NCBI GenBank assembly: GCA_030641525.1
Contig: DAOWHH010000016.1
Coordinates: 1,073 to 65,072, forward strand
Length of the DNA: 64,000 nucleotides
Direction of reading: 5' to 3'
Origin: a bacterium
GTDB lineage: Bacteria; Patescibacteriota; Minisyncoccia; Phycocordibacterales; UBA12079
Part shown: positions 48,296 through 64,000 of the stretch, piece by piece
How positions within the stretch are numbered: position 1 is the stretch's first letter
How the letters are laid out: each line of letters begins with the position of its first letter
Notes under the pieces: model-generated
Databases searched by the model: none
Seen by the model: only the letters and a program-made list of their open reading frames with translations
What the model was told of the DNA's origin: nothing
Position numbers and translations under genes: made by a program

Positions 48296-48347
48296 TGGGG
48301 TTATTGTAGCATGAATTGGGTGTTATGTATGAAAAAGTAAATTAAGA

Positions 48348-48953
48348 TTAAAGATTACTTGAAGTGGAACCAGAAATAAACATATTTAATCCAGTAATAG
48401 CTCCTCCCAAAGCATTTTCCAAATCTTGTACAGAAGATAGATTATTGATATTATTTTCTACATTTCTAGTTTTAGTCGGATTGATATTATTAACTATATC
48501 TTCAAACCATTTATCTAAACCTTGCAAAATTTCATCTGTCATATTACGAACATCAAGTATTAAAACATCATTAAATAGACAACGATGAATTATATTCCCA
48601 TTCAGATCAGGAGAACTAACAAATTTGTAACTCACATATCTTCTACTACTTAAAGTAATTCCTTGATGTAAAATTTTACATCTTATTTCATACCACTCAT
48701 CATCTAATAAAAACGGGCTTGCAACATAATCAGATGCCCACTTTTTATAACGACTTGAATTAGCTAATCCATTTGTTGATTCTAATGCCCCACAGATATC
48801 TGGAAAAATAATAATATAATGTAGTAATGCCCAATAAGCACCAGCTCCTCGCATTAAGGAAATCTGGTCAGTATATACAGAAAATTTTTCTTCAAGTTCT
48901 TCTTTATTCATGGTCTTATTTTTGCTTAATTTTATTAATATATTTTTTATCAA
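48348..48953 (-). CDS. Hypothetical protein, translationally coupled to the upstream helicase (38-bp overlap)
   Basis: 201-aa ORF with no motif. It is the last gene of the AbiH-like/helicase operon. Confidence 0.4.
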   Translation of the reverse strand: MIKNILIKLSKNKTMNKEELEEKFSVYTDQISLMRGAGAYWALLHYIIIFPDICGALESTNGLANSSRYKKWASDYVASPFLLDDEWYEIRCKILHQGITLSSRRYVSYKFVSSPDLNGNIIHRCLFNDVLILDVRNMTDEILQGLDKWFEDIVNNINPTKTRNVENNINNLSSVQDLENALGGAITGLNMFISGSTSSNL

Positions 48954-50544: not shown

Positions 50545-50550
50545 TTTATT

Positions 50551-51402: not shown

Positions 51403-51413
51403 TTTTATTTTTT

Positions 51414-51510
51414 TAATGCGGGCAACCTCGTGCTGGAACCGTGGATGGTTAAACTCTGTGAGGTCATTTTTCAATAGATTTATTTTATCAAAATTAAGGT
51501 CTTCGTGCAC
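51414..51510 (-). repeat. Family-A intergenic element, copy 1 (AATGCGGGCAACCTCGTGCTGGAACCGTGG...CGTGCAC)
   Basis: A roughly 95-nt element filling the spacer between the 145-aa gene and the AbiH-like gene. Confidence 0.75.
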
Positions 51511-51516
51511 TTAATT

Positions 51517-51954
51517 TCAATCAAAAAAGAAAGTGATATCAGAACAAATCAAAAAAATAATTATTCCAACAATAATCTTATTTTTGTTATTTTTTATCCA
51601 TCCAATAATATCTATCCAAACCATTCTAAAAAATTGTCTATACGGATTGTTTAAATGCGTTATGTTGATGGTAGTATTTAAATAGAGGGAAAAATTATCT
51701 ACATGAAATTTAAATATATATCCGTTTATAATTTTATTTTTAGGAAGTCTATGCTTATTTATATCTTTATCATCATAATCTGAATCCGAATTGTTTATAA
51801 GTGTATCCAACATTTTATGATATCTGACTAAAAAATACTTATCAACTGATTTTTCCTCAGGAAAAGAAGCGGCCGAACTGAGTAAAGCCTTGATCTCTGA
51901 TTGACATCCCTCCATAACATTTTGTATTTTTATATTATTAATTTTATGATGCAT
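51517..51954 (-). CDS. Hypothetical protein with a C-terminal TM helix
   Basis: 145-aa ORF. Confidence 0.35.
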   Translation of the reverse strand: MHHKINNIKIQNVMEGCQSEIKALLSSAASFPEEKSVDKYFLVRYHKMLDTLINNSDSDYDDKDINKHRLPKNKIINGYIFKFHVDNFSLYLNTTINITHLNNPYRQFFRMVWIDIIGWIKNNKNKIIVGIIIFLICSDITFFFD

Positions 51955-52348
51955 TTGTTTTATTTGGGTGCTTGTCCCACAAATCCCAATAAGATTTCTT
52001 GTCTCTAGGATTACCGGGATCTTTTTTTAAATAAGAATATAAAGTACCTTGTATTTGATGTGCCTGTAGCCAAATCCATCTATCGGTCATGTCTTCAGGA
52101 AATCCAGATTCAAGCAATCTTATTTCTAATCCCTCAATAATTTCAGGTGTTGTTATTTTACATTTTTTTATCCAAAGATATCTTCTTTCTTTGTGTACTC
52201 CATTCACGAAAGAATCCAAAGGACCGAGAACTTTATCCCAAAGTTCTACTGTAATTTTAAGTTGATGGGACGATAGAAACTCTTCTATTTTATTGCAGAA
52301 TCTGTCAATAGTTTCTTTCGATGGTTTTTCTTTATACTTTATTTTCAT
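51944..52348 (-). CDS. Hypothetical protein
   Basis: 134-aa ORF overlapping the next gene by 11 bp. Confidence 0.35.
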   Translation of the reverse strand: MKIKYKEKPSKETIDRFCNKIEEFLSSHQLKITVELWDKVLGPLDSFVNGVHKERRYLWIKKCKITTPEIIEGLEIRLLESGFPEDMTDRWIWLQAHQIQGTLYSYLKKDPGNPRDKKSYWDLWDKHPNKTNAS

Positions 52349-52377
52349 ATATTTAATTATCTTCGTGATAGCTCTAA

Positions 52378-52472
52378 AATGCGGGCAATCTCGAGCTAGA
52401 ACTGTGGGCGGTTAAGTTTGGTAAGGTTGTTTTTAATAAATTCATTCTATCCTTTTGAAGGCCCTCGTGCAC
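52378..52472 (-). repeat. Family-A intergenic element, copy 2
   Basis: AATGCGGGCAATCTCGAGCTAGAACTGTGGGCGGTTAAG...CCCTCGTGCAC, lying between the HNH gene and the 134-aa gene. Confidence 0.75.
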
Positions 52473-52500
52473 TTCTCTTTAATTAAAAATTTTTTGGCGA

Positions 52501-53421
52501 CTATTTAGAATGTCTATTTCCTTTTCCTAAATTACATTTTTCGCAAAGTGTTTGTAAGTTGTCTAGAATTGTTTTACCGCCTTTTGAAAATGGAATTATA
52601 TGATCGATGTGTAATTTACATTTCGGGTCGGTAGCGGGGCTTGTACCACACTTAATACATTTGAACTTATCCCTACTCAAAATTTTATAACGTAAGCCTA
52701 GTTTAATTTCATGGCGATCTTCGCTTGGTACACTAATTTTTTTAATTTCTTCTTCTGGCTCTTTGACAACTGATGTAATCTCTTTTTGTTCTAACTCGTC
52801 GTCTTTTTTATCCATTTTATTAATAAATGCTTCGAGTGCTTTTCTCCAACTTCCAAAACGTGATTCATATGCTGATGGGGTAATTGCCGATGGATGTTCT
52901 GCCATTTCTCTTAAAAAAGGCTGTCGTCCACAATGTGTCCAGACGTTTAACAGGTTTTCATAATATTCATTTTCGGTAAATCTTTTTCCGTAAGGTGACA
53001 ATTGTAATCCTGCCTTTTTAAGTCCTTTGGACCAAGAACCAAATCTGTAAATAACAGTTGAAGCACTAATCATTTCTGAATTATCCTTTATTTCTTCTTG
53101 GGATATATAATTTTTATCGAGTTTCTCAGCAGCCGTTCGTAATTCTTTCAAAATTTCTTTGTCAGTTAAATTTTTATTTTGCTTGCGCATTTTTTCAGAG
53201 ACTGTACGTCCAGAATATTTATGTCCAAGTTTTGCAACATTAAGAGCTTTTTGCCAACCACCTAATCTTTTTTGAATAGTACCAGAAGTTATTTTCCCAT
53301 GCTCATCATAGTCTTTCCTAGTTAATAATTCTTTACCCACAATTACATCAACACGTTTAATCTCATCTATTATTTCTTTGTCGGAGCAATTTCTTGTTAA
53401 GTTTTTTAGTTCAAATTTCAT
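52501..53421 (-). CDS. HNH endonuclease with three N-terminal helix-repeat modules (homing-endonuclease-like)
   Basis: C-terminal HNH (HIDHIIPFSKGGKTILDNLQTLCEKCNLGKGN). Three repeats of the xFGSWxKAL motif (RLGGWQKALNVAKL, RFGSWSKGLKKAGL, RFGSWRKALEAF). Confidence 0.7.
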   Translation of the reverse strand: MKFELKNLTRNCSDKEIIDEIKRVDVIVGKELLTRKDYDEHGKITSGTIQKRLGGWQKALNVAKLGHKYSGRTVSEKMRKQNKNLTDKEILKELRTAAEKLDKNYISQEEIKDNSEMISASTVIYRFGSWSKGLKKAGLQLSPYGKRFTENEYYENLLNVWTHCGRQPFLREMAEHPSAITPSAYESRFGSWRKALEAFINKMDKKDDELEQKEITSVVKEPEEEIKKISVPSEDRHEIKLGLRYKILSRDKFKCIKCGTSPATDPKCKLHIDHIIPFSKGGKTILDNLQTLCEKCNLGKGNRHSK

Positions 53422-53512
53422 GTTTTTATCCTAACGTAATTACTGGTTTTATAATAGTAAGTTACTAACAAACTACTTCGTGCTAGCACGATGTTGCGGA
53501 GAGGACAGGATT

Positions 53513-53590
53513 GGTCACGAATCACTAAGTATATTTCTTCGCTATCGCTCAAAATCTACTAAGTGTTCTCGACCCCGACTCAGCGACAAG
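53513..53590 (+). repeat. Family-B element, copy 3
   Basis: GGTCACGAATCACTAAGTATATTTCTTCGCTATCGCTCAAAATCTACTAAGTGTTCTCGACCCCGACTCAG. Confidence 0.65.
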
Positions 53591-53696: not shown

Positions 53697-53791
53697 AATG
53701 CGGGCAACCTCGTGCTGGAACCGTGGGGTATCAAGCCCTGTAAGGCGGTTTTAAGCTTTTTAGGACTACTAATCGAAGGATCCTCGTGCAC
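53697..53791 (-). repeat. Family-A intergenic element, copy 3
   Basis: AATGCGGGCAACCTCGTGCTGGAACCGTGGGGTATCAAG...TCCTCGTGCAC, preceded by the hairpin CAGGAATACCAC-TCAA-TGTGGTATTCCT at 53661-53690. Confidence 0.75.
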
Positions 53792-53807
53792 CTTTGTTTT
53801 TTCAAAA

Positions 53808-53847
53808 AGTGACAAAAGTGACACATAATTGATATATAAAATTACAG
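53808..53847. repeat. Family-C 40-nt direct repeat, copy 1 (downstream of the EEP gene)
   Basis: AGTGACAAAAGTGACACATAATTGATATATAAAATTACAG. Confidence 0.7.
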
Positions 53848-53903
53848 TCAATTGTAACTTTTGTGATAAATTATGACTCTAAATTCATTAGTTTCAATAA
53901 CCT

Positions 53904-54833
53904 CTAATCATCATCACCCAAATCCGTTCTAAATCTCGCATATATAGGATAATGATCTGAAACTTTAACAACAAAATCTTGATCGGTAATTCCATATTCT
54001 TGATCGAAATAAAATACTTCGGCGCTGTTCGGAATATATTCATAATTTAATGTACTGTCTCTAATTACAATTCTGTCATATGTCCAGCCAGTTTTAGTCA
54101 TTGTGTCCATATCGTTGGTGATTATCCAATGGTAAGGAAAAGATTTGAAAGTATTAGAGGTGGTGTCTTCGTCAAAATAACTACCGTCAGCATTGAAATC
54201 ACCCATAACAATTATGTCTTTTTCATTAGGATTTTTGTTTAAGATTGAATCAACAACATCTGCAAGATGAGCAATTTCTGAATCAGCATCATCCGGTTTT
54301 ATATGAATTCCTGCAAGTGTGAAATCAAAGTCTTCAGCCCGAAAAGAAGCGATATACGGTTCTCTTTCAAAAATATCATTTAAATCTTCATAAACATAAT
54401 CAGAATTTTCTAAAAATTCCACTTGGCAAGTGTTATAGAAATATGCATAAGCCTCTTTACTACTTGTTCTTCCCAGCCTCTGGCTTTTAATAAAGTTAAA
54501 TTTAGGATATTCAAAATCTTCGTTTATTTTAGTTAGATAATATGAAGCAGTTTCTTCTTTTGAGTCTCTTATTTCTTGAACTAATACAACATCAAACTCT
54601 TTGGTAATTTTCTTTAAGACCTTCATGACATCTTCTTTCGCTCTTTTTGTTTTGCCGAATACTTGAATATTAAAAGATGCTATTTTTATTTCTGATTTCG
54701 GGATTTCATTACATGAAGTAGAAGGAGAAGTGCTGATACCATTACCGTTACCAGACAATATAATAATTAAACCTACCACCAACAGAACAAGTAAGTTAAG
54801 GATATTCTTTTTTGATAAGTGTTTTGTAGACAT
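53904..54833 (-). CDS. Secreted or membrane-anchored endonuclease/exonuclease/phosphatase (EEP, DNase I-like) family nuclease
   Basis: Signal/TM N-terminus. EEP motifs (SFNIQVF, VLVQEIRD, MGDFNAD, SDHYPI). Confidence 0.7.
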   Translation of the reverse strand: MSTKHLSKKNILNLLVLLVVGLIIILSGNGNGISTSPSTSCNEIPKSEIKIASFNIQVFGKTKRAKEDVMKVLKKITKEFDVVLVQEIRDSKEETASYYLTKINEDFEYPKFNFIKSQRLGRTSSKEAYAYFYNTCQVEFLENSDYVYEDLNDIFEREPYIASFRAEDFDFTLAGIHIKPDDADSEIAHLADVVDSILNKNPNEKDIIVMGDFNADGSYFDEDTTSNTFKSFPYHWIITNDMDTMTKTGWTYDRIVIRDSTLNYEYIPNSAEVFYFDQEYGITDQDFVVKVSDHYPIYARFRTDLGDDD

Positions 54834-54881: not shown

Positions 54882-54922
54882 AGTGACAAAAAGTGACACA
54901 TAATCGATATATAAAGTTACAG
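54882..54922. repeat. Family-C direct repeat, copy 2 (upstream of the EEP gene)
   Basis: AGTGACAAAAAGTGACACATAATCGATATATAAAGTTACAG. Confidence 0.7.
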
Positions 54923-55408
54923 CTTCATGTCACTTTTAATTTCGTTATTATCAAGTACCCAACCGTAAACCTCGACTATGCCAATCTTACTTTTATCAAA
55001 GTCTGGCAACACATTTGGTAGCTTTCCTATTGAGATTAATATTCCAAATTTATAAAAATAAGGATCTTTAAAAAAAGTTTCATTAATCTTGTCGAGATCT
55101 TCTTGAAGATCTTTAGTTTTTGGATTTTTCTTTGCTTGAAAAACAACTAAGTTGTCTGAATGATTACTCCTCTTGTGAATAGCAATATCAGGACGTTTTC
55201 TGTCATTCTTTATAAGTTCAACATCAACATTATGTTTAGAAAACATTTCATTAAGTTTACTCTGAAGATGTGAGCATATATTCCACTCTGTTGTTTTCCA
55301 TATCTCGGGCTCAGTATCTGATATTTGTTTACAAGCAAGTGTTGTTTTGTTTAGAATTTCTTGGATTTCCATATTTTTGTTTTGAATTAAATATTTCTTT
55401 TCATCCAA
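54917..55408 (-). CDS. Small PD-(D/E)xK-like protein, paralogue of 21268-21681
   Basis: Shares TEWNI..H ... VDV ... KRPDI.IHKR.NH.DN ... LDKI with the R-M-linked paralogue. Confidence 0.5.
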   Translation of the reverse strand: MDEKKYLIQNKNMEIQEILNKTTLACKQISDTEPEIWKTTEWNICSHLQSKLNEMFSKHNVDVELIKNDRKRPDIAIHKRSNHSDNLVVFQAKKNPKTKDLQEDLDKINETFFKDPYFYKFGILISIGKLPNVLPDFDKSKIGIVEVYGWVLDNNEIKSDMKL

Positions 55409-55668
55409 TCAGTAACCTTTTTATCAACTCCCATAGTTCCCCAATCATCATCTGTAACATTCATTACTAATAATTCATCATTAGAGTCAATAAATTTCTT
55501 GAGATGATCTCTGATTTCAGAAGCTGAACTTTCAGAAACAACAAACCAAGTAGACTCTAGTGGTTTTGCCCATGAACCAAGCTTTTTAATTTGATCAATA
55601 AGACGTTTATATTCTGATGATGTTTCTCCTTTGTTTAAATCGTAAGCGATTAAAAATGTTTGTAACAT
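55387..55668 (-). CDS. Hypothetical small protein with a Cas2/VapD-like sequence pattern (weak)
   Basis: 93 aa. FLIAYDL ... LGSW ... STWFVVSE ... DELLVMNV resembles the Cas2 pattern hhhYDh...G.R.Q.SVF.C...DS.hhY.h. No cas1 and no array nearby. Confidence 0.3.
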   Translation of the reverse strand: MLQTFLIAYDLNKGETSSEYKRLIDQIKKLGSWAKPLESTWFVVSESSASEIRDHLKKFIDSNDELLVMNVTDDDWGTMGVDKKVTDWMKRNI

Positions 55669-55673: not shown

Positions 55674-55919
55674 TTAAAATTTAGTATCTTTAGGTGGGCA
55701 TGGATCATTGCCTGGTTTTACTGTGTCACTATCACGAATAGGACCACCGTTTGGTTTATGAATTCTTACTTCACCACCACCAGATTTAGCTGATAATTCT
55801 TTTGCGATTTTTTCGGCTTCTTTTTGGGTGCTAGCTGTAGCAGAAGCACGATTTGCTCCGGCTTTGATAGCTTTCCAAACGCCAGAACCTTTTGGATTTG
55901 TTACATGGTAATTTGCCAT
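55674..55919 (-). CDS. DUF2188 (YjzC-like) family protein
   Basis: MANYHVTNPKGSGVWKAIKAGANRASATASTQKEAEKIAKELSAKSGGGEVRIHKPNGGPIRDSDT matches the DUF2188 consensus. Confidence 0.65.
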   Translation of the reverse strand: MANYHVTNPKGSGVWKAIKAGANRASATASTQKEAEKIAKELSAKSGGGEVRIHKPNGGPIRDSDTVKPGNDPCPPKDTKF

Positions 55920-55925: not shown

Positions 55926-56543
55926 TTAATATAGATCTTCTGGAAGTACTGCAACAACTACCCCTTGGATCATACAATTATCTGTTAATACGATAGGTCT
56001 GTGTTCTTTGTTCTTTGATTTTGGTCGAAGAATAATAGCATCACGAGTCCTCTCAAAAATTTTGACAGTTGCTTCATCATTAATAAGAGCAACTACCTTA
56101 TCTCCATTGTCTGCTGTATTTTGCTGTCTTATAAGAAGCAAGTCGCCATTATTGATTCCATCTGCATCCATTGAATCACCTAACGCTCGGAGAAAAAAAT
56201 ATTTTGATCCCTTTTGAACCATTCTTGTTGAAACAGGAATGTAGGTCTGTATATTTTCTTCTGCAAAGATTGGAGTTCCGCAGGCAACAGAGCCAACGAG
56301 GGGGACATCTACAATACTTACAGAATTTTCTTTATAAGTATTCACGAGTACTAAGTTTCTCCCTTTTTTCTTTATAAGACCAGATGCAATAAGTCGATTA
56401 ATTACAAGACTTGCTGACCTTGGAGATCTTCCACCCGTTACTTCGTTAATTTCACGAAGGGTAGGGCTTTCACCATAATGGATAATCTTGTTGCGGATAA
56501 GGGCAAAAGCTTTTTTGTCTTTGTCACTAAGGTTATTTGTCAT
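55926..56543 (-). CDS. lexA: LexA repressor (S24 peptidase)
   Basis: N-terminal LexA wHTH (LIRNKIIHYGESPTLREINEVTGGRSPRSASLVINRLIASGLIKKKG), cleavage-site region VACG, and catalytic Ser/Lys (GDSM ... K). Start taken at the MTNNLSDK Met; the track ORF begins at 56600. Confidence 0.85.
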   Translation of the reverse strand: MTNNLSDKDKKAFALIRNKIIHYGESPTLREINEVTGGRSPRSASLVINRLIASGLIKKKGRNLVLVNTYKENSVSIVDVPLVGSVACGTPIFAEENIQTYIPVSTRMVQKGSKYFFLRALGDSMDADGINNGDLLLIRQQNTADNGDKVVALINDEATVKIFERTRDAIILRPKSKNKEHRPIVLTDNCMIQGVVVAVLPEDLY

Positions 56544-56616
56544 GGTATAAATAGTATAAATTATTTTATATAATAATGCAAGTATTTTGTTTAAAACCAA
56601 CTCTGTTAAACCACAA

Positions 56617-57309
56617 CTAAGTATTATTTTCTTCTACAACATAATCAATTTTCGTTCTTGCTCCATCTAATACAGGATCATCAAGAGAATACTTTTGGAC
56701 AGGCACAATACCCCTTCCTGAGTATTCTAGTGTTTTATACAAATACCCAAGAAAAGATCCTGTGTACCGATAACAACGTATACATCCTTTTATTTTATCC
56801 TCTACATCATCAGTATAACCTTTCCATTTTTTCAGATAATAATAACGATCAATCCAATCATCAACTGTGTACGTGAGCAAACCAACTAATTCTTGTTGAG
56901 CTAAGACATTACCTTTTTGATACAATCTTACAAGTTTAACTAGAATTTTGTCCCTAGAGGCAAAATCTTTCTCATCAAGTGAAGTAATAAAAGTATATAG
57001 CTTATCTTTATGTTTAGTTAAGATAAGATTAACCTCGTCTTTGTTTTCATATGGTTTTACTACTTTTCGCCTGTACCTTACCCAACGTCTCTGAAATTCT
57101 CTTTCTAGAAGACTGGTAACTCTATCCCAATCTATTTCATCTGTTTCAGTTCTGATATTTTTATGTATAAATCTATATGCACGAGGTACATGTTGAACTA
57201 TCCATGAGCTACTGATTTTTTTAGGTTGTTTTTCACGAATAGTTTTATTTAATTCTTTTATAATACAATTAAGATTCATTGTGAAATTATACACGGGATT
57301 GATTGACAT
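56617..57309 (-). CDS. Hypothetical protein
   Basis: 230-aa ORF upstream of lexA with no motif recognised. Confidence 0.35.
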   Translation of the reverse strand: MSINPVYNFTMNLNCIIKELNKTIREKQPKKISSSWIVQHVPRAYRFIHKNIRTETDEIDWDRVTSLLEREFQRRWVRYRRKVVKPYENKDEVNLILTKHKDKLYTFITSLDEKDFASRDKILVKLVRLYQKGNVLAQQELVGLLTYTVDDWIDRYYYLKKWKGYTDDVEDKIKGCIRCYRYTGSFLGYLYKTLEYSGRGIVPVQKYSLDDPVLDGARTKIDYVVEENNT

Positions 57310-57354
57310 AATATATGGACCCTATATTATTAAAGGTAAGAGTTCTTGAAGAAA

Positions 57355-57585
57355 ACCACATATTGAGCGCATCTCCTCGAGCGCTACCATGTAATCGGCA
57401 GTACCAATTACATTAACGAGGCCGTCTAAGGAAAAACCTAAGACGAAGAGATTTACATCGGCAGAACCGGAGTGAATCTAGGTAACAAAAAGTAATAGTC
57501 TGATATTTCAGACTAGGTGTTTTTGTTTTCTAGATTTGTTCCGGACAAAATGAAAACACCATTTAAGGGGTGTTTTTTTTCGTTT
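57355..57585 (+). ncRNA. Candidate structured non-coding RNA with two tandem intrinsic terminators
   Basis: GC-richer 230-nt ORF-free stretch containing AGCGC-(n10)-GCGCT and repeated ATCGGCAG(T/A)ACC segments. It ends with TAGTCTGATATTTCAGACTA+T-run (57496-57530) and AACACC-ATTTAAGG-GGTGTT+T8 (57555-57580), just upstream of the ParB-MTase gene. Confidence 0.35.
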
Positions 57586-57618
57586 ACTCTTAATATTAAA
57601 AATTAAGAAATAAACAAC

Positions 57619-58902
57619 ATGTATAAATTAAAATGGACAACGGAAAAACGTCGGATTAATGATTTGGTGCCTTTCGAGAGAAACCCTAGGTCAATTAGCC
57701 CAAAACAATTAAAAGATTTAACAAAGAGTCTTAAAAAATTCAATCTTGTTGAGATTCCTGCAATTGATATAGACAACAAAATACTTGCAGGACACCAACG
57801 CCTAAAAGTATTGCAATTACTTGGACGAGGTGACGAGGAAATAGATGTACGAATTCCAAACCGTAAACTCACTAAAAAAGAATCGGAACAATACCTTATA
57901 TCAAGCAACGTTCTTGGTGGTGATTGGGATTTTGAAAAACTTAAATCATTTGATCTAGATTTGTTGATTGATATTGGTTTTGACCAAGTCGACCTCTCTC
58001 ATCTTTGGAATGATGAGTTAGAAGTGCAAGACGAAGATTTTGAAGTTGAAAAAGAATTAAAGCAGATTAAGAAACCTAAAACAAAAATAGGTGATCTTAT
58101 TTATCTTGGCCCCCATAAATTAATTTGTGGTGATTCCACTGATCCAAAAAATTTAAAAAGATTATTTGGTAACGAACAAGCTTCAATGATTTATTCTGAT
58201 CCTGTATACAACATCTCAATTGATTACAACAAAGGTATTGGGGGAAAACAGAGTTATGGTGGGACCGTTAATGACAACAAGTCTGAAGTTGATTATAGGG
58301 ATCTCATCAAACAAAGTCTTGAGAACGCACTGTCGGTAGCAAAGAAGGATACACATATTTTCTACTGGTGTGATCAAACATACATTTGGTTAATTCAAGA
58401 ACTATATCGAGAACTTGGGATAACAAACAAAAGAGTGTGTTTATGGATTAAAAACGGACACAACCCTGTTCCGAGTGTGGCATTTAATAAGTGCTACGAA
58501 CCATGTACTTATGGTGTGCGAGGAAAACCATACATTACTAAGAATATTCAAAACCTCAATGAAGTTTTGAATAAAGAGATTACTACAGGTAATAACTTAC
58601 TTGAAGAAACTCTTGATGAACTCGATGTATGGCTTGTTAAACGTCTTTCTCACAAAGACTATGAACATGCAACAAGCAAGCCACCAAAGTTACACGAAAA
58701 GGCAATTCGTAGATGTACAAAACCCGGAGATATTATTCTTGATTCATTTTCAGGATCAGGAAGTACTTTAATTGCAGGAGAGCAATTAAAACGCAAAGTC
58801 TACGCGGTCGAACTAGAACCTATCTTTTGTGATCTTGTGATTAAAAGATATGAAAAATTAACAGGCGTTAATGCAAAAATAGAAAATGTCAAAGAAAAAT
58901 AA
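57619..58902 (+). CDS. ParB-like nuclease domain fused to a DNA (N4/N6) methyltransferase
   Basis: N-terminal ParB/Srx domain (FERNPRSISPKQLKDL ... AGHQRLKV). C-terminal methylase motifs (SDPVYNI; DSFSGSGST). This is a phage-typical architecture. Confidence 0.75.
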   Translation: MYKLKWTTEKRRINDLVPFERNPRSISPKQLKDLTKSLKKFNLVEIPAIDIDNKILAGHQRLKVLQLLGRGDEEIDVRIPNRKLTKKESEQYLISSNVLGGDWDFEKLKSFDLDLLIDIGFDQVDLSHLWNDELEVQDEDFEVEKELKQIKKPKTKIGDLIYLGPHKLICGDSTDPKNLKRLFGNEQASMIYSDPVYNISIDYNKGIGGKQSYGGTVNDNKSEVDYRDLIKQSLENALSVAKKDTHIFYWCDQTYIWLIQELYRELGITNKRVCLWIKNGHNPVPSVAFNKCYEPCTYGVRGKPYITKNIQNLNEVLNKEITTGNNLLEETLDELDVWLVKRLSHKDYEHATSKPPKLHEKAIRRCTKPGDIILDSFSGSGSTLIAGEQLKRKVYAVELEPIFCDLVIKRYEKLTGVNAKIENVKEK

Positions 58903-59290
58903 AGTTAGAGATTCCTTTCTTGATGAATTAAAGAAAATTCCTATTGTTCAAGTTGCCTGTGAAAAAACAAGAGTTTCTCGCAATAGTATTTATAGGTGGA
59001 AAAAGGAAGATAAGGAGTTTTGCAAAGAAATGGAAGAAGCTTTAGCTGAAGGTGAAGCATTAGTTAACGATATGAGTGAAAGTCAATTACTGACACTTAT
59101 TAAAGAGAAAAACTTCTCTGCTATAAGCTTCTGGCTTCGACATAGAAATTCAAAGTTTAAAAACAAAGTTGAAGTTACCACAAAAATAGGAATTGATGAC
59201 GACGATCTTACGCCCGAACAAGAAACTATTGTAAAAAGAGCTTTAGAGCTTGCAACTTCAACTAAACCTAATGAAAAAAATCATGACTGA
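58886..59290 (+). CDS. Terminase small subunit-like HTH protein
   Basis: 134 aa. HTH (VACEKTRVSRNSIYRWKKEDKEF). Overlaps the upstream and downstream genes. Confidence 0.55.
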   Translation: MSKKNKVRDSFLDELKKIPIVQVACEKTRVSRNSIYRWKKEDKEFCKEMEEALAEGEALVNDMSESQLLTLIKEKNFSAISFWLRHRNSKFKNKVEVTTKIGIDDDDLTPEQETIVKRALELATSTKPNEKNHD

Positions 59291-60788
59291 TGAAACGCAA
59301 AAAATTATTGAAATAATGCTAAAGGATATAAAAGTGAGAAGAAGTATTGCGAGAGAAAATCACTTATTATTTTTCAGTGCTTACTTTGGACATTATATGG
59401 AATATGAATTTGCAGATTTTCACCGAGAAATGTTTGATTTAAGCTCTAATGAAAATATTCAAACACTTGTAATCACCGCGGCTCGAGGAATTGGTAAATC
59501 AACTATTCTTAATATGAGTTTAGCTATTTGGTCGATACTTGGAAGACGAAGAAAAAAGTTTGTTATTATCCTCAGTCATACTCAAGCAAAAGCACGACAA
59601 CATTTCAATAACTTAAGAAAAGAGTTTGAAGAAAATAAATTACTTCAAAGTGATTTAGGACCTTTCAAAGAAGACAGTGGTGAATGGGGATCATCTTTGG
59701 TCCTTCCTCATTACGATGCTCGTATAACTTTTGCTTCAACCGAGCAAAGTATCCGTGGGATGCGTCACAAACAACATAGACCTGATTTGATTATTGCAGA
59801 CGACTTAGACGATAATGATTCGATAAAGACATTGGACGGAAGAAATAAAACATATGACTGGCTAACGAAAGATATTATTCCTGCAGGAGAAACAAATACA
59901 AAGTTGGTTATAGTTGGAACACTTCTTCATGAAGATTCAATCATGATGAGACTAAAGAAAGAAATATTAGAAGGAAAAAGAACTGGTGAGTATAGAGAAT
60001 ATCCACTTGTCGATGATAATGGATTAATACTTTGGAAAAGTAAGTACCCAAATAAATTAGCTTTGGAAGCAGAGAGGTTAAGAATTGGTAATGAAAAGTC
60101 TTGGTGCCAAGAATATCTTTTAAAGATTGTTTCTGATGCTGATAGGGTTATCCACCCAGAATGGATTCGATATCATGAAGAAATTCCTAGTAGGACACCA
60201 GAAAATAGTTATCGCTATACTTTTACAGCAATTGACTTAGCAATTTCAGAAAGAGAACGGGCTGATTGTACTGCTATGGTTTCAGCTAGTGTGTATGGTT
60301 ATGGTGAAAATATGAGAATATATATTTTGCCAAATCCAATTAATGAGCGTTTGGATTTTCCAAGTGCAATAGAAAAAGCTAAATTACTTTCATTAAGTCT
60401 TTCTCATAATGGAAAGAAAACAAGACTTGTTATTGAGGATAATATGTATCAAAGGGCTTTTCCACAAATGCTACAAAAAGATAGATACCCTGCAGAGGGA
60501 GTCCAGTCTGTCGGAGATAAGCGAACTCGCTTAACACTCATAAACCCAACAGTGAAAGCGGGGCAAGTATTATTTCCAAAAGAAGGAACTGAAACTTTGA
60601 TTCAACAACTTATTGGTTTTGGAGTAGAGCGATACGATGACTTAGCTGATGCTTTTGCAATTCTTGTTGGAGAAGTTATGAAAAATAACCCCAACAGATC
60701 ATTTAGTGAAAGTGCTCAAAAAATGATAGAGATAAATGGGTGGGATAAAGAAGATGGAGAGATTCCGATTCTTTATAAGCAATATTAA
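59250..60788 (+). CDS. Terminase large subunit
   Basis: 512 aa. ATPase Walker A-like LVITAARGIGKST and Walker B DLIIADDLDD. C-terminal RNase-H-like nuclease (TAIDLAISERERADCTAM). Confidence 0.8.
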   Translation: MQLQLNLMKKIMTDETQKIIEIMLKDIKVRRSIARENHLLFFSAYFGHYMEYEFADFHREMFDLSSNENIQTLVITAARGIGKSTILNMSLAIWSILGRRRKKFVIILSHTQAKARQHFNNLRKEFEENKLLQSDLGPFKEDSGEWGSSLVLPHYDARITFASTEQSIRGMRHKQHRPDLIIADDLDDNDSIKTLDGRNKTYDWLTKDIIPAGETNTKLVIVGTLLHEDSIMMRLKKEILEGKRTGEYREYPLVDDNGLILWKSKYPNKLALEAERLRIGNEKSWCQEYLLKIVSDADRVIHPEWIRYHEEIPSRTPENSYRYTFTAIDLAISERERADCTAMVSASVYGYGENMRIYILPNPINERLDFPSAIEKAKLLSLSLSHNGKKTRLVIEDNMYQRAFPQMLQKDRYPAEGVQSVGDKRTRLTLINPTVKAGQVLFPKEGTETLIQQLIGFGVERYDDLADAFAILVGEVMKNNPNRSFSESAQKMIEINGWDKEDGEIPILYKQY

Positions 60789-61151
60789 TTATTTTTTACA
60801 AATATGATCTCGTATATGATTTACGAGTTTCTTTACGCTATCATCTTGTCTTATAATCCATTTCATTTTTACTTTATTACCAGAAGCAAAAAATGAAATA
60901 GTATGACCCATTATTCCTTTACCTACTTCAATTGAAGATATGTTCGAGTATGGAAATACTTCAAGTTCGTAACCAATAAGTTTTTTTGCAAAGAAGACCA
61001 AGCGATCATCTGTTGTTAAAAAAATACCTTTCCGTGCTGTTTTTTGACCAAACCTTTCAATTTCATATGAGCCAAGAACTACAGTAAGAATATTTTCATT
61101 TATATCTAAATGTTCTTTTACCTTTTCTGTTAACTTGTTTATTTTTGACAT
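60789..61151 (-). CDS. Bacterial PH-domain-like protein
   Basis: 120-aa ORF whose pattern resembles bPH family proteins. Confidence 0.35.
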   Translation of the reverse strand: MSKINKLTEKVKEHLDINENILTVVLGSYEIERFGQKTARKGIFLTTDDRLVFFAKKLIGYELEVFPYSNISSIEVGKGIMGHTISFFASGNKVKMKWIIRQDDSVKKLVNHIRDHICKK

Positions 61152-61155
61152 ATTT

Positions 61156-61304
61156 CTTTAGCGGATTTAAAAACGGTGGAAGTCTTTAGAATTACAAAAG
61201 ACTCCTCGCCATCGCGAATGAACCGAAGCTCATCCCATATGGGTTTCCCCACATGACCGCTAAAGTGACTCTGGACGAGGAGTCTTTTATACTTTAGCGG
61301 ATTT
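61156..61304. repeat. Structured element bounded by 13-bp direct repeats CTTTAGCGGATTT, with a 13-bp long-range inverted repeat
   Basis: AAAAGACTCCTCG (61196-61208) pairs with CGAGGAGTCTTTT (61276-61288), enclosing the hairpin CCCATATGGG. Followed by a (TA)6 tract before the recombinase gene. Confidence 0.6.
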
Positions 61305-61507
61305 TTCAACCATGCCTTATAAAAATTTTATAAGGGTTAGGTCTACTACTAATATTCAATTGTTAATTAACATAATACCGTATCTTTACAGTATTATCCA
61401 TACACCTTATCGCAAATCCTTTGTTTTGCTAAGGGAAGTTGCCAACAAGTTGTCGACGCCACATCGCTTAGCAAGAGACTCTTTCTCTGTCATTAATATA
61501 TATATAT

Positions 61508-62827
61508 ATGGAAACGAATACATTTTCACAACAAACCAAGTCGGCAGTAATTCCAGACATTAAGATGAAGTATTGCCTATATGCTCGAAAAAGTACTGAA
61601 TCAGACGAACGACAAGCCCTGTCTATTGATTCTCAAGTCAAAGAGATGTTACAGATAGCAGAAAGAGAGGGTCTCGAGATTATAGATATTAGAAGAGAAT
61701 CAAAATCAGCTAAAGACTCGAATAATAGACCTGTATTTAAAGAATTACTTCGTGATATATCGGAAGGACGATTTAACGCTATCCTCACATGGGCACCTGA
61801 TAGATTATCAAGAAATGCAGGTGATCTTGGTTCTGTTGTTGATTTAATGGATGCAAAAAAACTTATAGGTATTCGTACTTATGGGCAAACTTTTTCTAAT
61901 TCTCCAAACGAAAAATTTCTCTTGATGATTCTTTGTTCTCAGGCAAAACTAGAAAATGATAATAGAGGTATAAATGTAAAAAGAGGATTACGAACAAGAT
62001 GTGAAATGGGATTATGGCCGACCTGTCCACCCACTGGGTATTTTAAAGAAAAAAGAATGGATCGAAAATGTGAATGTCTTATTGATGAAGAAAGAGCCCC
62101 TGTTATAAAACAAATATTTGAGAAAGTGGCTTATGAGAAATGGTCTGGAAGAAAAATTTATCACTGGCTTAGGTTTGATTTGAATTTTAGAACAGAAGCT
62201 GGAAAGAAACATTTTAGTCTAGGTAATATTTATCGGATGTTAGAGAATCCATTTTATTATGGAACTTTTGAATATCCCAGAGGATCAGGCAATTGGTACA
62301 AAGGAAAACACGAGCCAATAATCACCAAAGAACTTTTTGATTTAGTACAAGGTCAAGTAAAGAATTCTCAACTTGTTAGAAAAGAAAATATTGAATTTGC
62401 CTTTACCAAAATTATGAAATGCGGACTTTGTGGATCTGGAATTTCAGCAACTGAAAAATTCAAAAAATTAAAAAGTGGAGATTTTAATCGACATGTTTAC
62501 TATGGTTGTACAAAAGCGAAAGATAAATATTGTAAATGTGGGTTTATAAACGAAAACAATCTTATTCAACAGCTACAGAACTTGGTTGATGAGATACAGA
62601 TGGACGAAACAGGCGTTCTTAAGAAAATAAAAGCGGAGGTGGCTCGCTATAAAAAATTCCAAGCAACCCTATTGGGGAATGAGATGGATACCGTGGTGTC
62701 TGACGTAGATACTAGGGATTATGTGAAATTCCTGATTAAGAACGGCACTCTTGAAGAGAAGCGAGAGATTATGTTGTGCTTCACGTCTAGTATTAGCTTA
62801 AAAAATGGAAAAATTGGCTTAAAATAA
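61508..62827 (+). CDS. Large serine recombinase (integrase/resolvase family)
   Basis: N-terminal resolvase catalytic domain (YARKSTESDERQALSIDSQ ... LTWAPDRLSRN). Recombinase domain and zinc ribbon (CGLCGS ... YYGCTKAKDKYC). Probable start at MKYCLYARKST. Confidence 0.85.
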   Translation: METNTFSQQTKSAVIPDIKMKYCLYARKSTESDERQALSIDSQVKEMLQIAEREGLEIIDIRRESKSAKDSNNRPVFKELLRDISEGRFNAILTWAPDRLSRNAGDLGSVVDLMDAKKLIGIRTYGQTFSNSPNEKFLLMILCSQAKLENDNRGINVKRGLRTRCEMGLWPTCPPTGYFKEKRMDRKCECLIDEERAPVIKQIFEKVAYEKWSGRKIYHWLRFDLNFRTEAGKKHFSLGNIYRMLENPFYYGTFEYPRGSGNWYKGKHEPIITKELFDLVQGQVKNSQLVRKENIEFAFTKIMKCGLCGSGISATEKFKKLKSGDFNRHVYYGCTKAKDKYCKCGFINENNLIQQLQNLVDEIQMDETGVLKKIKAEVARYKKFQATLLGNEMDTVVSDVDTRDYVKFLIKNGTLEEKREIMLCFTSSISLKNGKIGLK

Positions 62828-62844
62828 GCCCTATAAAGTTTTCC

Positions 62845-63966
62845 ATGCAACAGTTTTCCACATTTTGTCCCTTTTATCTATATATTTGTCCCACATTATG
62901 CTACAATACTAGTATGAAAGAGCAAATACAAAAAAAAAATATCCTCAATCTTATTAAATATCACGCCGAGAAGAACGATTCTGGCTTCAAAAAAGAAGCG
63001 TACGATATGGCCAGATATTTTGACTCCATCGGTGACTCGGAGCTAGCTCAGTATATCATGGCGTTACTCTCTGGTACCAATACCTTCGTTCCTCAAGACA
63101 ACGAGTATAACCTACCGTTTTTTAGCAAGATAAATCTTTCAGCTAGCAGTACTCTACCGCTCCCGTCACAGATACAGAAAGACGTGATAGGCATCATTAA
63201 TTCAATTGGCCACAAAGCTGATATTACCAAGTTCCTATTCGAAGGTGAGCCTGGTACTGGTAAGACTGAGACGGTTAAGCAAGTGGCTCGTATTCTTGAG
63301 CGTGAGTTGTATATTATCGACTTTGATACAGTAATTGATAGCAAGCTCGGTCAAACGTCAAAAAACCTCGCTTCGGTTTTTGTAGAATTAAAAAATCTAC
63401 CACAACCAGAGCGAGTTATTGTACTATTTGATGAGATAGATGCTATTGCTCTTGATCGAGTAAACTCAAACGACTTACGAGAAATGGGCCGAGTGACTTC
63501 TTCGATGCTTAAAGGCCTTGATGGTCTGAGTGATGATGTTGTTCTTATCGCCACCACTAATTTGTATAGCCAATTCGACAAGGCATTATTTCGACGTTTT
63601 GACATGATTGTCAATTTCAACCGATACAGTGATGAAGACTTGGTTGAGGTTGCTGAGTCCATCCTTGGTCAGTTTCTAACGAAATTTAAATCGGCAGGTC
63701 GTAATAAACGACTATTCCGTAAAATTCTCCTGACCATGGAGCATATACCGTACCCTGGCGATCTCAAGAACATGATTAAAATCGCTTTAGCTTTTAGTGA
63801 CCCTCAGAGTGAGTATGATTATTTAAAGAAAATGTATGAAGCGATACATTCTGAGAAAGATGCACTTGATTTGAAAGTACTTCAGAGTAAAGGATTCACT
63901 GTTCGTGATATTGAAATTCTTACCGATAAATCGAAGAGTCAAGTGGCCAGAGATTTAAATATATAA
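62845..63966 (+). CDS. AAA+ ATPase
   Basis: Walker A GEPGTGKTE, Walker B VLFDEIDAIALDR, sensor-1 IATTN. Highest local GC. Probable start at MKEQIQKK. Confidence 0.75.
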   Translation: MQQFSTFCPFYLYICPTLCYNTSMKEQIQKKNILNLIKYHAEKNDSGFKKEAYDMARYFDSIGDSELAQYIMALLSGTNTFVPQDNEYNLPFFSKINLSASSTLPLPSQIQKDVIGIINSIGHKADITKFLFEGEPGTGKTETVKQVARILERELYIIDFDTVIDSKLGQTSKNLASVFVELKNLPQPERVIVLFDEIDAIALDRVNSNDLREMGRVTSSMLKGLDGLSDDVVLIATTNLYSQFDKALFRRFDMIVNFNRYSDEDLVEVAESILGQFLTKFKSAGRNKRLFRKILLTMEHIPYPGDLKNMIKIALAFSDPQSEYDYLKKMYEAIHSEKDALDLKVLQSKGFTVRDIEILTDKSKSQVARDLNI

Positions 63967-64000
63967 GATTATGAATGATATTCTCCAATTAAAAGGAAAT

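Follow-up and report, generated by a model that had tools for sequence, protein, structure and literature searches.

The window, ie the whole 64-kb stretch of DNA that was analysed, contains one element (Table 1); its remainder consists of housekeeping genes, and the relatives of its LeuRS are Patescibacteria. The six genes named in the first-pass annotation of positions 57619-63966 (ParB-methyltransferase, TerS, TerL, a PH-like gene, a large serine recombinase and an AAA+ ATPase) were all present by Pfam and PHROG matches. The 10 kb upstream of them is, as had been stated, free of virion genes, with nucleases and a LexA-like gene in their place; AbiH and a UvrD/GajB-like helicase are also found there. 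LexA had been regarded as the surroundings of the module, but it is part of the element, as are the genes as far back as 53.5 kb; the element begins 4 kb upstream of the flagged interval. The GC content is 0.349 in that interval, 0.352 in the whole island and 0.299 in the housekeeping part of the window, where the highest value for a 6.3-kb host segment is 0.315. The rise noted earlier is thus real (35% against 30%) but, at 5 points, modest and not marked. The earlier description lacked the LOOT RNA, the att repeat (53474-53512), the identification of the AAA ATPase as IetA and the upstream start of the element.

Table 1. Features of the island in order of position. Coordinates above 64000 are window equivalents, beyond the window.
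Feature	Position	Strand	Evidence or remark
attL, 39-bp direct repeat	53474-53512		final 17 nt of tRNA-Ser(GGA) and the 22 nt that follow
Conserved ~95-nt non-coding DNA element, island left end	53697-53790	+	two GC[A/T]CGAG boxes ~75 nt apart
Operator/promoter-like motif	53805-53865	+	AAAAGTGACAAAAGTGACAC-N11-TATAAA-(A/G)TTACAG-N5-TGTAAC
Endonuclease/exonuclease/phosphatase-family nuclease	53904-54833	-	Pfam Exo_endo_phos 6e-11; cargo
Degenerate second copy of operator/promoter-like motif	54882-54937		86% identical over 58 bp
163-aa protein	54917-55408	-	no assigned function
Cas2-like small protein	55387-55668	-	Pfam CRISPR_Cas2 3e-5, phrog_1090 8e-24
DUF2188 small protein	55674-55919	-	Pfam 2.7e-18
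LexA/CI-like repressor	55926-56600	-	N-terminal LexA-type winged HTH and S24 autopeptidase; Peptidase_S24 1.3e-29, LexA_DNA_bind 2.8e-5, phrog_4 5.6e-23
230-aa protein, CPR bacteria only	56617-57309	-	divergent from packaging operon
Promoter-like site TTGACA-16-TATTAT and ~290-nt leader	57303-57618	+	ahead of ParB-MTase start codon; consensus scan
ParB-N (nuclease-like) domain fused to N6/N4 DNA methyltransferase (ParB-MTase)	57619-58902	+	first gene of packaging operon; Pfam N6_N4_Mtase 2.5e-27, phrog_498 4e-83, ParB-like phrog_620 1e-21
Small terminase subunit-like (TerS) HTH protein	58886-59290	+	weaker profile support and position; four TerS PHROGs, 6e-9 (phrog_4044) to 7e-4; Pfam HTH_Tnp_1_2 just under cut-off
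Large terminase subunit TerL (ATPase and nuclease)	59250-60788	+	phrog_38 5e-73, full length
Bacterial PH-domain (bPH) protein	60789-61151	-	bPH_3 1.2e-16; variable cargo led by LOOT
LOOT RNA (Rfam RF03000)	61216-61343	-	64 nt upstream of bPH gene, co-stranded
Large serine recombinase	61508-62827	+	Resolvase 4.7e-21, Recombinase 3.3e-17, Zn_ribbon_recom 1.3e-6, phrog_95 1e-65
IetA (AAA ATPase), Iet anti-phage pair	62845-63966	+	PADLOC IetA 5.9e-41
IetS (S8 peptidase, 747 aa)	63971-66214		PADLOC IetS 1e-61; gene order from L001
attR	66670-66708		overlaps intact tRNA-Ser(GGA)
tRNA-Ser(GGA)	66692-66779	-	ARAGORN, L001 7178-7265 (-); 2.7 kb past window

Contig L001 is 100% identical to positions 59515-64000 and runs 9.8 kb further, through IetS, a 52-aa ORF, tRNA-Ser, radical SAM, GNAT, serpin and M48 peptidase genes and an IS200-type transposase. 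The att repeat proposed earlier as a check was found: window positions 53474-53512 and L001 positions 7156-7194 are identical at 38 of 39 positions (blastn), and the window has one occurrence of the 33-nt core of the repeat, where 0 are expected. This direct repeat bounds a 13.2-kb island, from 53474 to the window equivalent of 66708, at the 3' end of tRNA-Ser(GGA) in the chromosome of a Patescibacteria (CPR) bacterium, and it regenerates the tRNA. Analogous repeats lie at tRNA 3' ends in loci L037, L046 and L057, and the tRNA-overlapping repeats give island sizes of 13.2, 16.6, 17.0 and 13.7 kb. Family islands lie beside a minus-strand tRNA-Ser, tRNA-Gln or tRNA-Glu in about 24 loci, the flanking genes vary from locus to locus, and some contigs or MAGs hold two copies. 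Searches for an excised circle, an attP junction, an empty attB and a terminally redundant contig yielded none.

The large serine recombinase is the only recombinase in the island and is presumed to be its integrase/excisionase. A homologue is present in 63 of 83 loci, usually right after TerL or one or two genes on and often beside a tRNA. An identity of 19-39 bp at the 3' end of a tRNA is what tyrosine integrases typically give, while the attP and attB sites of large serine integrases usually have only a few bases in common; the recombinase was therefore assigned to insertion by elimination. The LexA/CI-like repressor has a GDSM serine and a TVK lysine, with ACG read from the sequence at the LexA cleavage-site position, and homologues occur in 30 of 83 loci, approximately 3 kb upstream of TerL. 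No Pfam domain was found in the 230-aa protein. Those of its 494 homologues that have source names are all from Patescibacteria. Its AF2 model (pLDDT 82) gave as best local Foldseek matches the sigma2 domains of sigmaE and SigC (probability 0.8-0.9, target TM 0.6-0.7, E>1), and tentatively it may be a sigma-region-2-like transcription regulator.

The packaging operon opens with the ParB-MTase, which has a homologue in 77 of 83 loci; this precedes TerS in most loci with upstream sequence, and is sometimes split or followed by an extra gene. The second product, present in 81 of 83 loci and nearly always immediately before TerL, appears TerS-like from weak profile matches and its position. Translation of TerL probably starts at the ATG at 59271, giving 505 aa, and its Walker A Lys, Walker B DD and C-terminal acidic residues are invariant in an alignment of 16 sequences. 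The dN/dS ratio was 0.12 for TerS (against L003), 0.12 for TerL and 0.10 for the recombinase, with dS saturated; at about 0.1, purifying selection acts on the core genes. L167, closely related and located at the same tRNA, has kept ParB-MTase, TerS and recombinase and lost TerL, which is therefore dispensable for persistence. Two tandem TerL paralogues are present in some family members.

The variable anti-phage cargo of this island comprises IetA/IetS, the nuclease and the bPH protein. The nuclease at the left end carries an N-terminal hydrophobic segment and is probably exported, and the 163-aa protein had no Pfam, PHROG or PADLOC match. The Cas2-like protein (phrog_1090) is found in six family loci, window included, and the DUF2188 protein recurs in 12 with its relative position unchanged. 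The AAA+ ATPase gene is where it had been placed, but it encodes IetA, half of the Iet defence pair, ie it is cargo; a role as a phage replication or packaging gene was rejected on the PADLOC match. As in the known Iet (IetAS) system, an AAA ATPase and an S8 protease are adjacent, and nothing notable differs. The related island L003 has a similar pair in the opposite orientation, that of L037 carries Gabija and a restriction-modification system, and defence cargo across the family includes CBASS cyclases, type III REase, Gabija and a Sie-like gene behind LOOT.

The LOOT motif was reportedly described from metagenomic or candidate-phyla sequences. In the window the match is full-length and scores 82.3 bits, well above the gathering score (46.4), and the RNA leads the PH-like gene, which is indeed present but proved to be variable cargo. 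Elsewhere the LOOT-led slot is filled by a Sie-like membrane protein (cluster c4, phrog_8545 1e-13; 13 of 29 tabulated LOOT loci) or by other small genes. The RNA was found in 29 of 82 family loci, every one inside the element. Pairing is kept in 94% of cells, compared to 62% for shuffled sequences and 30-40% for slid controls, and covariation is strong within the island family. In Rfam LOOT (RF03000; Weinberg et al. 2017, PMC5737381) is an orphan motif filed as an sRNA gene of unknown function, whereas here it lies inside islands, ahead of cargo ORFs. Because it is no more than 90 nt upstream of the next co-oriented ORF, and beside TerL or the recombinase, in 24 of 28 loci checked, its placement points to a cis-acting leader of cargo genes.

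Three further non-coding sites were identified. A profile of the 95-nt element (nhmmer) matched 27 other loci in unchanged orientation, mostly 4-7 kb upstream of TerL where TerL was tabulated; three weak matches are closer, at 2-4 kb, and L082 and L084 each have another copy downstream. Neither strand gave a consensus RNA structure, and the element is a candidate pac, regulatory or recombination-accessory site. The operator/promoter-like motif is nearly invariant in 14 aligned loci; its inverted repeat shows no covariation and is therefore a DNA-level site. The leader before ParB-MTase has two terminator-like hairpins, at 57496-57515 and 57552-57577, and is conserved only in the closest relative, L003; we infer a regulatory role for it.

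The order ParB-MTase > TerS > TerL, usually then the serine recombinase, was found in at least 584 species-representative genomes, nearly all Patescibacteria. Homologues of TerL number more than 2499; identity is at least 49% for the 120 listed, of which those with names are Patescibacteria/CPR. TerL identity is flat at about 50% across CPR classes. The sampled family comprised 132 loci, of which 50 came from IMG/VR and 82, with this window among them, from genomes. The order and strand of the three packaging genes are conserved in about 80 of 83 loci, and when 1480 neighbouring ORFs were clustered the only near-universal families were these three and the recombinase. The fixed core of the family is [LexA/CI-like <] ParB-MTase > TerS > TerL > [LOOT-led cargo] serine recombinase >. 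A scan of every island ORF revealed no virion, lysis or recognisable replication gene. No portal homologue was found among the 2023 ORFs of the 132 loci, and the 25 PHROG families that recur most among 108 large neighbours include no structural one. The same layout is seen in 51 'viral' contigs of IMG/VR whose TerL is 40% or more identical, all without virion genes; contigs with TerL at most 33% identical resemble ordinary phages. Only TerL and ParB/MTase were common to those 2023 ORFs and 496 ORFs from 30 true-phage loci.

The nearest true phage is the metagenomic L126, with TerL 41% identical and the portal right after it. It was the only related true phage among 52 close TerL relatives in IMG/VR, and no helper phage was identified. 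Acinetobacter phage Bphi-R1888 has ParB-MTase > TerS > TerL > portal > head morphogenesis, its ParB-MTase homologue being 30% identical. The gene order is as in the island, except that portal and/or head genes follow TerL in these phages whereas a cargo gene and the recombinase do so in the island. Temperate tailed phages with ParB-MTase > TerS > TerL were probably the ancestral source of the module, and the island looks like a temperate-phage genome reduced to regulatory, packaging and integration functions.

We lean, without great confidence, towards the island being a phage satellite of a new kind, one that supplies a complete terminase of its own and no capsid. The first-pass annotation had offered a satellite-like element with its own terminase, and this is the best reading of the anatomy, ie a repeat-bounded 13.2-kb island with a terminase, no virion genes and a conserved layout; the hijacking of a helper is a proposal only. 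The recombinase would integrate and excise the island at tRNA 3' ends, and the S24 autopeptidase repressor would silence it until DNA damage or a helper phage lifted repression. The divergent operon, with its two-terminator leader and perhaps helped by the sigma-like 230-aa protein, would then express ParB-MTase, TerS and TerL. TerS would recognise a site on the island, for which the conserved 95-nt element is one candidate, and TerL would dock on procapsids of a co-resident or infecting CPR phage and package island DNA into them; its spread would thus be that of a phage satellite. Its cargo would protect host and island against other phages. Counted against the satellite model were the failure to find a helper and the sole related true phage in IMG/VR, the lack of an excised form and of a replication module, the repeat length more usual for tyrosine integrases, the loss of TerL in L167, the flat TerL identity and the weak TerS profiles.

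A close comparison is with phage-inducible chromosomal islands (PICIs, eg SaPIs). Like the island these are 10-17 kb, with an integrase, a phage-type repressor, divergent operons, their own TerS to redirect packaging, anti-phage cargo and no tail or lysis genes (satellite packaging strategies are summarised in PMC10690885 and PMC10085698). PICIs rely on the TerL of the helper, whereas the island family has its own; they normally encode a primase/replicase and AlpA or Stl-type regulators, none of which was found in the island. The large serine recombinase as integrase and Patescibacteria as host phylum also set the island apart, and a literature search found no reported satellites in that phylum. 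Of the satellites described, only capsid-forming PICIs (cfPICI) and the Streptomyces satellites MiniFlayer/MulchRoom have TerS as well as TerL (PMC10085698; PMC10690885). These also encode major capsid protein, portal, protease or scaffold and head-tail adaptors, none of which was found in the island or sampled family loci. Most known satellites have a replication module, which was not recognised in the island; the defence cargo of the family is as in known satellites.

The terminase may serve an end other than self-transfer, either as an anti-phage competitor or saboteur of procapsids or in packaging in situ (lateral-transduction/GTA-like) with the structural genes elsewhere. We consider this unlikely, but it deserves attention: the module is embedded among defence genes, some members have tandem TerL paralogues, no replication genes or excised form were seen, and TerL is conserved to an unusually even degree. 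Docking of TerL on the portal is as a rule specific, yet the identity of TerL is flat across CPR classes, which could point away from helper capsids to a conserved function unrelated to them. However, no precedent can be cited for a terminase holoenzyme as defence effector, and the module is always accompanied by an integrase in islands bounded by repeats at tRNA genes, as fits a selfish mobile element.

It is improbable that the island is a decaying cryptic prophage remnant, its functionless terminase kept by chance beside an active integrase and defence cargo. The layout is what a temperate phage would have without its structural, lysis and replication blocks, L167 has no TerL, and the window from 45.8 to 53.4 kb may contain relics of earlier islands. 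Against this, about 80 species-level genomes and 51 IMG/VR contigs, drawn from many CPR classes, have all four core genes intact, dN/dS is low even with saturated dS, the catalytic residues of TerL do not vary, and independent decay would not halt at the same point each time. Slightly harder still to credit is a phage-independent integrative island that has co-opted the trio, with no capsid, for processing its own DNA, for example in partition or in resolving replication products. DNA processing is in principle within reach of a ParB-N domain and an ATPase-nuclease, and a helper is not known; but TerL matches phage terminases over its full length, nuclease domain included, its nearest relative outside the islands is a phage TerL with a portal after it, and the four fully bounded islands contain no replication initiator or conjugation gene.

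Hardly any weight is left for the left edge of an ordinary prophage with portal, capsid, tail and lysis genes just past 64 kb, which the first-pass annotation had also suggested: the three packaging genes are the canonical start of a phage late operon and the window stops 3.2 kb after TerL, but the 9.8 kb of L001 past the window, where structural genes would have indicated an ordinary prophage, holds IetS, the tRNA with its att repeat and host-type genes and no portal, capsid or tail gene, so that the reading is refuted, and moreover a reverse cargo gene and the recombinase directly follow TerL and the same truncation is seen throughout the 132 sampled loci. A second independent contig, L002, shows the same AAA > S8 junction, which argues against L001 being a chimeric assembly.

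The contig L001 (14.3 kb), a public sequence 100% identical to window 59515-64000, extends 9.8 kb beyond the window. After the AAA gene it carries an S8 peptidase, a 52-aa ORF, tRNA-Ser(GGA) on the minus strand, radical SAM and GNAT genes, a serpin, an M48 peptidase and an IS200-type transposase. The att repeat that the first-pass annotation proposed to look for past 64 kb was found at the tRNA-Ser, where L001 7156-7194 matches window 53474-53512 at 38 of 39 positions (blastn, L001 against the window). This 39-bp repeat consists of the final 17 nt of the tRNA and 22 nt downstream, and its core occurs only once in the window. Between them the two copies delimit 13,235 bp (window 53474 to window-equivalent 66708, ie projected beyond 64 kb along L001). 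Tandem islands are not supported, as there is no further tRNA-fragment repeat to the left. On the other side of the tRNA, L001 7528-11717 (window-equivalent 67042-71231) holds the radical SAM and GNAT genes, a 128-aa ORF and the serpin, between tRNA-Ser and the M48 peptidase. In two metagenomic relatives, L166 and L167, the M48 peptidase follows the tRNA directly, and these genes are therefore a second insertion. Two sequences of about 75 nt (26713-26786 and 26891-26965), near tRNA-Glu (27062-27134), are about 77% similar to 53510-53583, just inside attL, and may represent a small dispersed repeat.

All the ORFs between the att repeats were scanned with Pfam, PHROGs and PADLOC. Their order is exported EEP nuclease, 163-aa protein, Cas2-like protein, DUF2188, LexA/CI-like protein, 230-aa protein, ParB-methyltransferase (ParB-MTase), TerS, TerL, bPH gene, recombinase, IetA and IetS. 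The six genes named in the first-pass annotation are all where it had placed them, and the rise in GC content that it described is real: 0.349 in the interval 57619-63966 compared to 0.299 in the housekeeping part of the window, and higher than in any host stretch of equal length.

Principal features of the island, in window coordinates
Feature	Position	Strand	Evidence
95-nt DNA element, left end	53697-53790		
Operator-like motif	53805-53865		GTGACA direct repeats, TATAAA, GTTACA-N6-TGTAAC
Exported EEP nuclease	53904-54833		
Cas2-like gene	55387-55668	-	phrog_1090
ParB-N domain fused to N6/N4 DNA methyltransferase	57619-58902	+	Pfam 2.5e-27; phrog_498 4e-83
TerS-like HTH protein, 134 aa	58886-59290	+	weak matches to four TerS PHROGs, best 6e-9
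TerL, full length	59250-60788	+	phrog_38 5e-73, residues 22-491
Bacterial PH-domain (bPH) protein	60789-61151	-	
LOOT RNA (RF03000)	61216-61343	-	82.3 bits; gathering threshold 46.4
Large serine recombinase	61508-62827	+	all three diagnostic domains
IetA (AAA ATPase)	62845-63966	+	PADLOC 5.9e-41
IetS (S8 peptidase, 747 aa)	on L001, past window end	same as IetA	PADLOC 1e-61

The PHROG match and the invariant catalytic residues indicate a TerL with both its ATPase and its nuclease domains; database entries start the protein at the ATG at 59271. No public record of an identical TerL (512-aa or 505-aa form) was found by exact look-up, and the exact IetA protein is encoded on two public contigs. 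The Resolvase, Recombinase and zinc ribbon Pfam domains of the recombinase all score above their cut-offs and the YARKST serine motif is present. The LexA/CI-like protein is an S24 repressor in which both the Ser and the Lys motif are intact. The IetA and IetS genes, adjacent on one strand with a gap of 4 bp, constitute an Iet defence system, a known anti-phage pair, and are accordingly regarded as cargo. Neither the island, nor the 64-kb window as a whole, nor the further 9.8 kb contains a portal, major capsid, tail or lysis gene, and there is no phage structural gene in the 74 kb of this chromosome examined; structural genes just past 64 kb were the finding that the first-pass annotation held would count against a satellite. 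Nor was a primase, helicase or Rep domain found among the island ORFs by Pfam, PHROGs or PADLOC, the 163-aa and 230-aa ORFs being without an assigned domain. The 230-aa protein, whose gene is divergent from the packaging operon, has 494 homologues, of which those with a named source are all from Patescibacteria. Its AF2 model is confident, and the sole local PDB matches, to sigma-factor region 2 domains, fall below significance. The Cas2-like gene is a stand-alone gene which recurs in six family loci, including the window; that it might belong to a CRISPR locus was rejected, there being no match to an Rfam CRISPR repeat family in the window and no other cas domain among the scanned ORFs.

Ordinary chromosome makes up the other 45 kb of the window, encoding PBP2, SMC, TopA, FtsA/FtsZ, TsaD, YchF, transketolase and two class-I aminoacyl-tRNA synthetases, among them a LeuRS whose nearest named relatives are without exception from Patescibacteria. 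A type III restriction-modification pair lies within this housekeeping part, at 21692-26229 on the minus strand (ResIII helicase-nuclease, 918 aa, and N6/N4 methyltransferase, 594 aa). As the first-pass annotation had said, no virion gene lies in the 10 kb upstream of the flagged genes, where nucleases and a LexA-like gene are found; AbiH and a GajB-like helicase are there too. Outside attL, 45847-53421 is a dense nuclease and defence run comprising NYN, an EEP nuclease, a staphylococcal-nuclease homologue, AbiH, a GajB-like UvrD helicase without its GajA partner, and an HNH endonuclease with three HNH-associated repeats.

The island belongs to a large family. Its TerL is no more than 26% identical to the TerL of catalogued phages, and there are more than 2499 homologues in metagenomes, with identities of at least 49% among the 120 matches listed. 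The named sources of these listed homologues are Patescibacteria/CPR or unclassified 'bacterium' MAGs, many of them on contigs of 200-600 kb. A scan of one genome per GTDB species gave at least 584 loci, the titles of which, among the matches listed, include Paceibacteria, Microgenomates, Saccharimonadia and Berkel-, Doudna-, Kuenen- and Peribacteria. Some third-party (TPA) locus records are labelled Gammaproteobacteria or Bdellovibrionales, labels which we suspect to be wrong. In the 83 loci studied a TerS-like gene was present in 81 and the ParB-MTase in 77, invariably upstream of TerL and in the same order and strand; 63 had a homologous large serine recombinase, mostly starting 1.5-3.5 kb past the TerL start, and 30 a LexA-like gene, usually about 3 kb upstream on the opposite strand. 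When the 1480 ORFs of these loci were clustered, the only near-universal families were TerL, TerS, ParB-MTase and the recombinase type, and the other clusters were host genes, defence genes and small island-specific proteins. The trio is flanked by housekeeping or defence genes both in L003 (TerL 79% identical, 438-kb contig) and in L004 (TerL 54% identical, 237-kb Patescibacteria contig). Both ends could be defined for four islands, those of the window, L003, L037 and L046, which are 12.9-17.0 kb long and contain no structural genes. The cargo of L037 is Gabija and a MutH-type restriction-modification pair. PADLOC found CBASS cyclases, type III REase and Gabija among the large non-core neighbours, and none of the 25 PHROG families most recurrent among 108 such neighbours was structural.

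The same layout is found among sequences catalogued as viruses. An alignment-based scan of IMG/VR (a single-protein pattern scan gave no match) yielded 52 contigs with a TerL at least 40% identical, and 51 of them have the island layout. The sole exception, L126 (TerL 41%), has a portal after TerL (phrog_12, 3e-72), and contigs whose TerL is 33% identical or less are ordinary phages in which the downstream genes are co-directional. No homologue of the portal of L126, the nearest phage, occurs in the 132 sampled family loci, and a phmmer comparison of 496 ORFs from 30 phage loci with the 2023 ORFs of these 132 found only TerL and ParB/MTase in common. The 51 UViGs (among L085-L136) are catalogued as viruses and are of the virion-less island type; a TerL match alone seems to have flagged them. 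Five IMG/VR contigs (L088, L090, L092, L096 and L099) appear to have tandem TerL paralogues of about 520-560 aa each before the recombinase, three confirmed by PHROGs and two assigned from ORF size and position. Two tandem TerL genes would be unusual for any phage or satellite.

Flanking genes vary between loci, and some MAGs or contigs carry two copies of the island. A gene for tRNA-Ser (any anticodon), tRNA-Gln or tRNA-Glu follows the recombinase at a distance of 0.1-8 kb in about 24 loci; it is encoded on the minus strand, and its 3' end points towards the island. Significant repeats overlap the tRNA 3' end in the window (35-39 bp), L037 (17-23 bp), L046 (19 bp) and L057 (18 bp); many family loci have no repeat of 16 bp or more. 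A metagenome scan with the att core returned three contigs, either occupied or with unrelated cargo by the tRNA, and no empty attB or attP junction; no circular contigs with terminal repeats were present in the family. The attP and attB sites of large serine recombinase elements usually share only a short central core. Since it is tyrosine integrases that more typically show long identity at the 3' end of a tRNA, we can only infer, by elimination and from its position next to the tRNA, that the serine recombinase is the integrase.

The LOOT RNA lies inside the island and was found in 29 of 82 loci with a covariance model built in this analysis. Its covariation is strong: 94% of cells are paired, where shuffles reach 62% and slid controls 30-40%, and double-change cells number 280, compared to 78 after shuffling. 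The five-helix covarying structure is present. In 24 of the 28 loci checked LOOT is 90 nt or less upstream of the next co-oriented ORF, most gaps being 43-90 nt. Two layouts dominate: either cargo and LOOT are together on the strand opposite to TerL and recombinase, which they separate, or TerL, recombinase, LOOT and cargo follow one another on one strand. The gene behind LOOT is most often a membrane-anchored protein of 160-215 aa whose PHROG match (1e-13) is to Sie-like superinfection exclusion; 13 of the 29 tabulated LOOT loci have such a gene, and in the window it is the bPH gene. A conserved G-rich/U-rich tract, GGCGUGGGGCUUUGUGUUU, is found past the 3' end of the model. We read LOOT as the cis-acting leader of a variable exclusion/defence cassette, which differs from its Rfam classification as an sRNA. 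A literature search for LOOT gave nothing beyond the 2017 discovery paper and a methods paper.

We have high confidence in the boundaries of the island, in its family, in the lack of virion genes, in the association with LOOT and in the defence cargo. In phage Bphi-R1888 the order is ParB-MTase, TerS, TerL, portal, head, and the trio therefore corresponds to a phage packaging operon of which only the 5' part is kept, the cut falling exactly behind TerL. An SOS-cleavable-type repressor, an integrase, a complete terminase, conserved cis elements and defence cargo, together with the lack of virion, lysis and replication genes, fit a helper-dependent satellite. A satellite-like element with its own terminase, the second option of the first-pass annotation, is the best available reading, and we hold with moderate confidence, somewhat above an even chance, that the island packages itself in this way; its own terminase would fill the procapsids of a helper. 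Three points weigh most against the satellite reading: it lacks a known helper phage, neither an excised nor a packaged form was seen, and the island has no recognised replication module.

Among the alternatives, a terminase-based defence or a lateral-transduction/GTA-like device fares best, although we consider it unlikely. That the island is an inert remnant is less probable again. Between the window and L003 dS is saturated, with dN/dS values of 0.12 for TerS, 0.12 for TerL and 0.10 for the recombinase, and in 16 diverse aligned members the Walker A Lys, Walker B DD and nuclease acidic residues of TerL are invariant; the core is maintained, not decaying, which argues against a remnant. One close relative at the same tRNA-Ser(GGA), L167 (metagenome contig Ga0222637_1000633, 4208-7362), has a ParB-MTase, TerS and recombinase 81-85% identical and is without TerL, the recombinase directly following TerS. 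A capsid-independent role of the terminase in DNA processing is given slightly less weight than a remnant. The edge of a prophage continuing past 64 kb, the other option of the first-pass annotation, is refuted by the L001 continuation, which has no portal, capsid or tail gene.

As in classical PICIs, which are islands of about 10-15 kb with an integrase at one end, the satellite proposed here is bounded by att repeats (13.2 kb) and has an integrase, but its recombinase is of the serine type, the cargo lies between recombinase and island end, and no primase or replicase of its own is recognised. The TerS-like gene is also shared with PICIs, but the island adds its own TerL instead of relying on that of the helper. 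In cfPICIs, TerL and TerS occur along with major capsid, portal, protease and head-tail adaptor/connector genes (PMC10085698), whereas the island has only TerS and TerL. Known satellites use the helper terminase, or contribute TerS or an adaptor only, or encode TerS and TerL plus capsid and portal (PMC10085698; PMC10690885). None of these three packaging modes matches, and the gene set is thus a new variant. In the literature searched, coverage of which was incomplete, there was no description of this island family, of a CPR terminase/serine-recombinase element or of CPR satellites. It is our tentative proposal, just short of evenly balanced, that these are the first satellites of Patescibacteria and of a new, 'terminase-only' type, having TerS/TerL and ParB-MTase without capsid genes, filling helper procapsids with their own DNA, integrating at a tRNA by means of a serine recombinase and carrying LOOT-led exclusion/defence cargo.

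Much of bacterial diversity belongs to the CPR/Patescibacteria, which have tiny genomes, few CRISPR systems and poorly known phages and mobile elements. With at least 584 species-level genomes carrying it, an island type of this kind would be a major route by which they exchange defence genes, and would supply a function and context for LOOT, an orphan Rfam RNA. It would also extend satellite hijacking strategies, since a full terminase without capsid genes is absent from the four described satellite families. Where a TerL match alone is used, virus catalogues would mis-count islands as CPR phages; if the satellite reading is true, dozens of IMG/VR 'viruses' with CPR hosts are in fact satellites. 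In CPR, which lack genetic tools, serine recombinases that have defined tRNA targets could be of practical use.

At the left end of the island, 180-330 bp inside attL, the 95-nt element and the operator-like motif are conserved in the subfamily with TerS at least 60% identical, and no RNA covariation was found in either. The GC-rich left-end region (53.5-53.9 kb) was rejected as a structured RNA and is treated as a DNA-level element because it matched no Rfam family and neither strand showed covariation. A second copy of the GTGACA-repeat/GTTACA-N6-TGTAAC motif, at 54882-54937, brackets the exported EEP nuclease gene with the first; the gene looks like an inserted cassette, or one with its own operator. 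Extra copies of the 95-nt element lie outside the left repeat at 51415-51509 and 52378-52471, one just upstream of the AbiH gene (minus strand) and the other between the HNH gene and a 134-aa gene. The stretch from 45.8 to 53.4 kb, in which no further tRNA-fragment repeat was found, may hold what remains of the left arms of older islands; alternatively, the element may serve as a promoter or mark the junction of a cassette. The ParB-MTase is preceded by a near-consensus promoter and, after it, a leader of 290 nt that contains two terminator-like hairpins; L003 is the only other locus in which the leader is conserved, and it matches no Rfam family. This arrangement of promoter and hairpins suggests a possible antitermination-type control.
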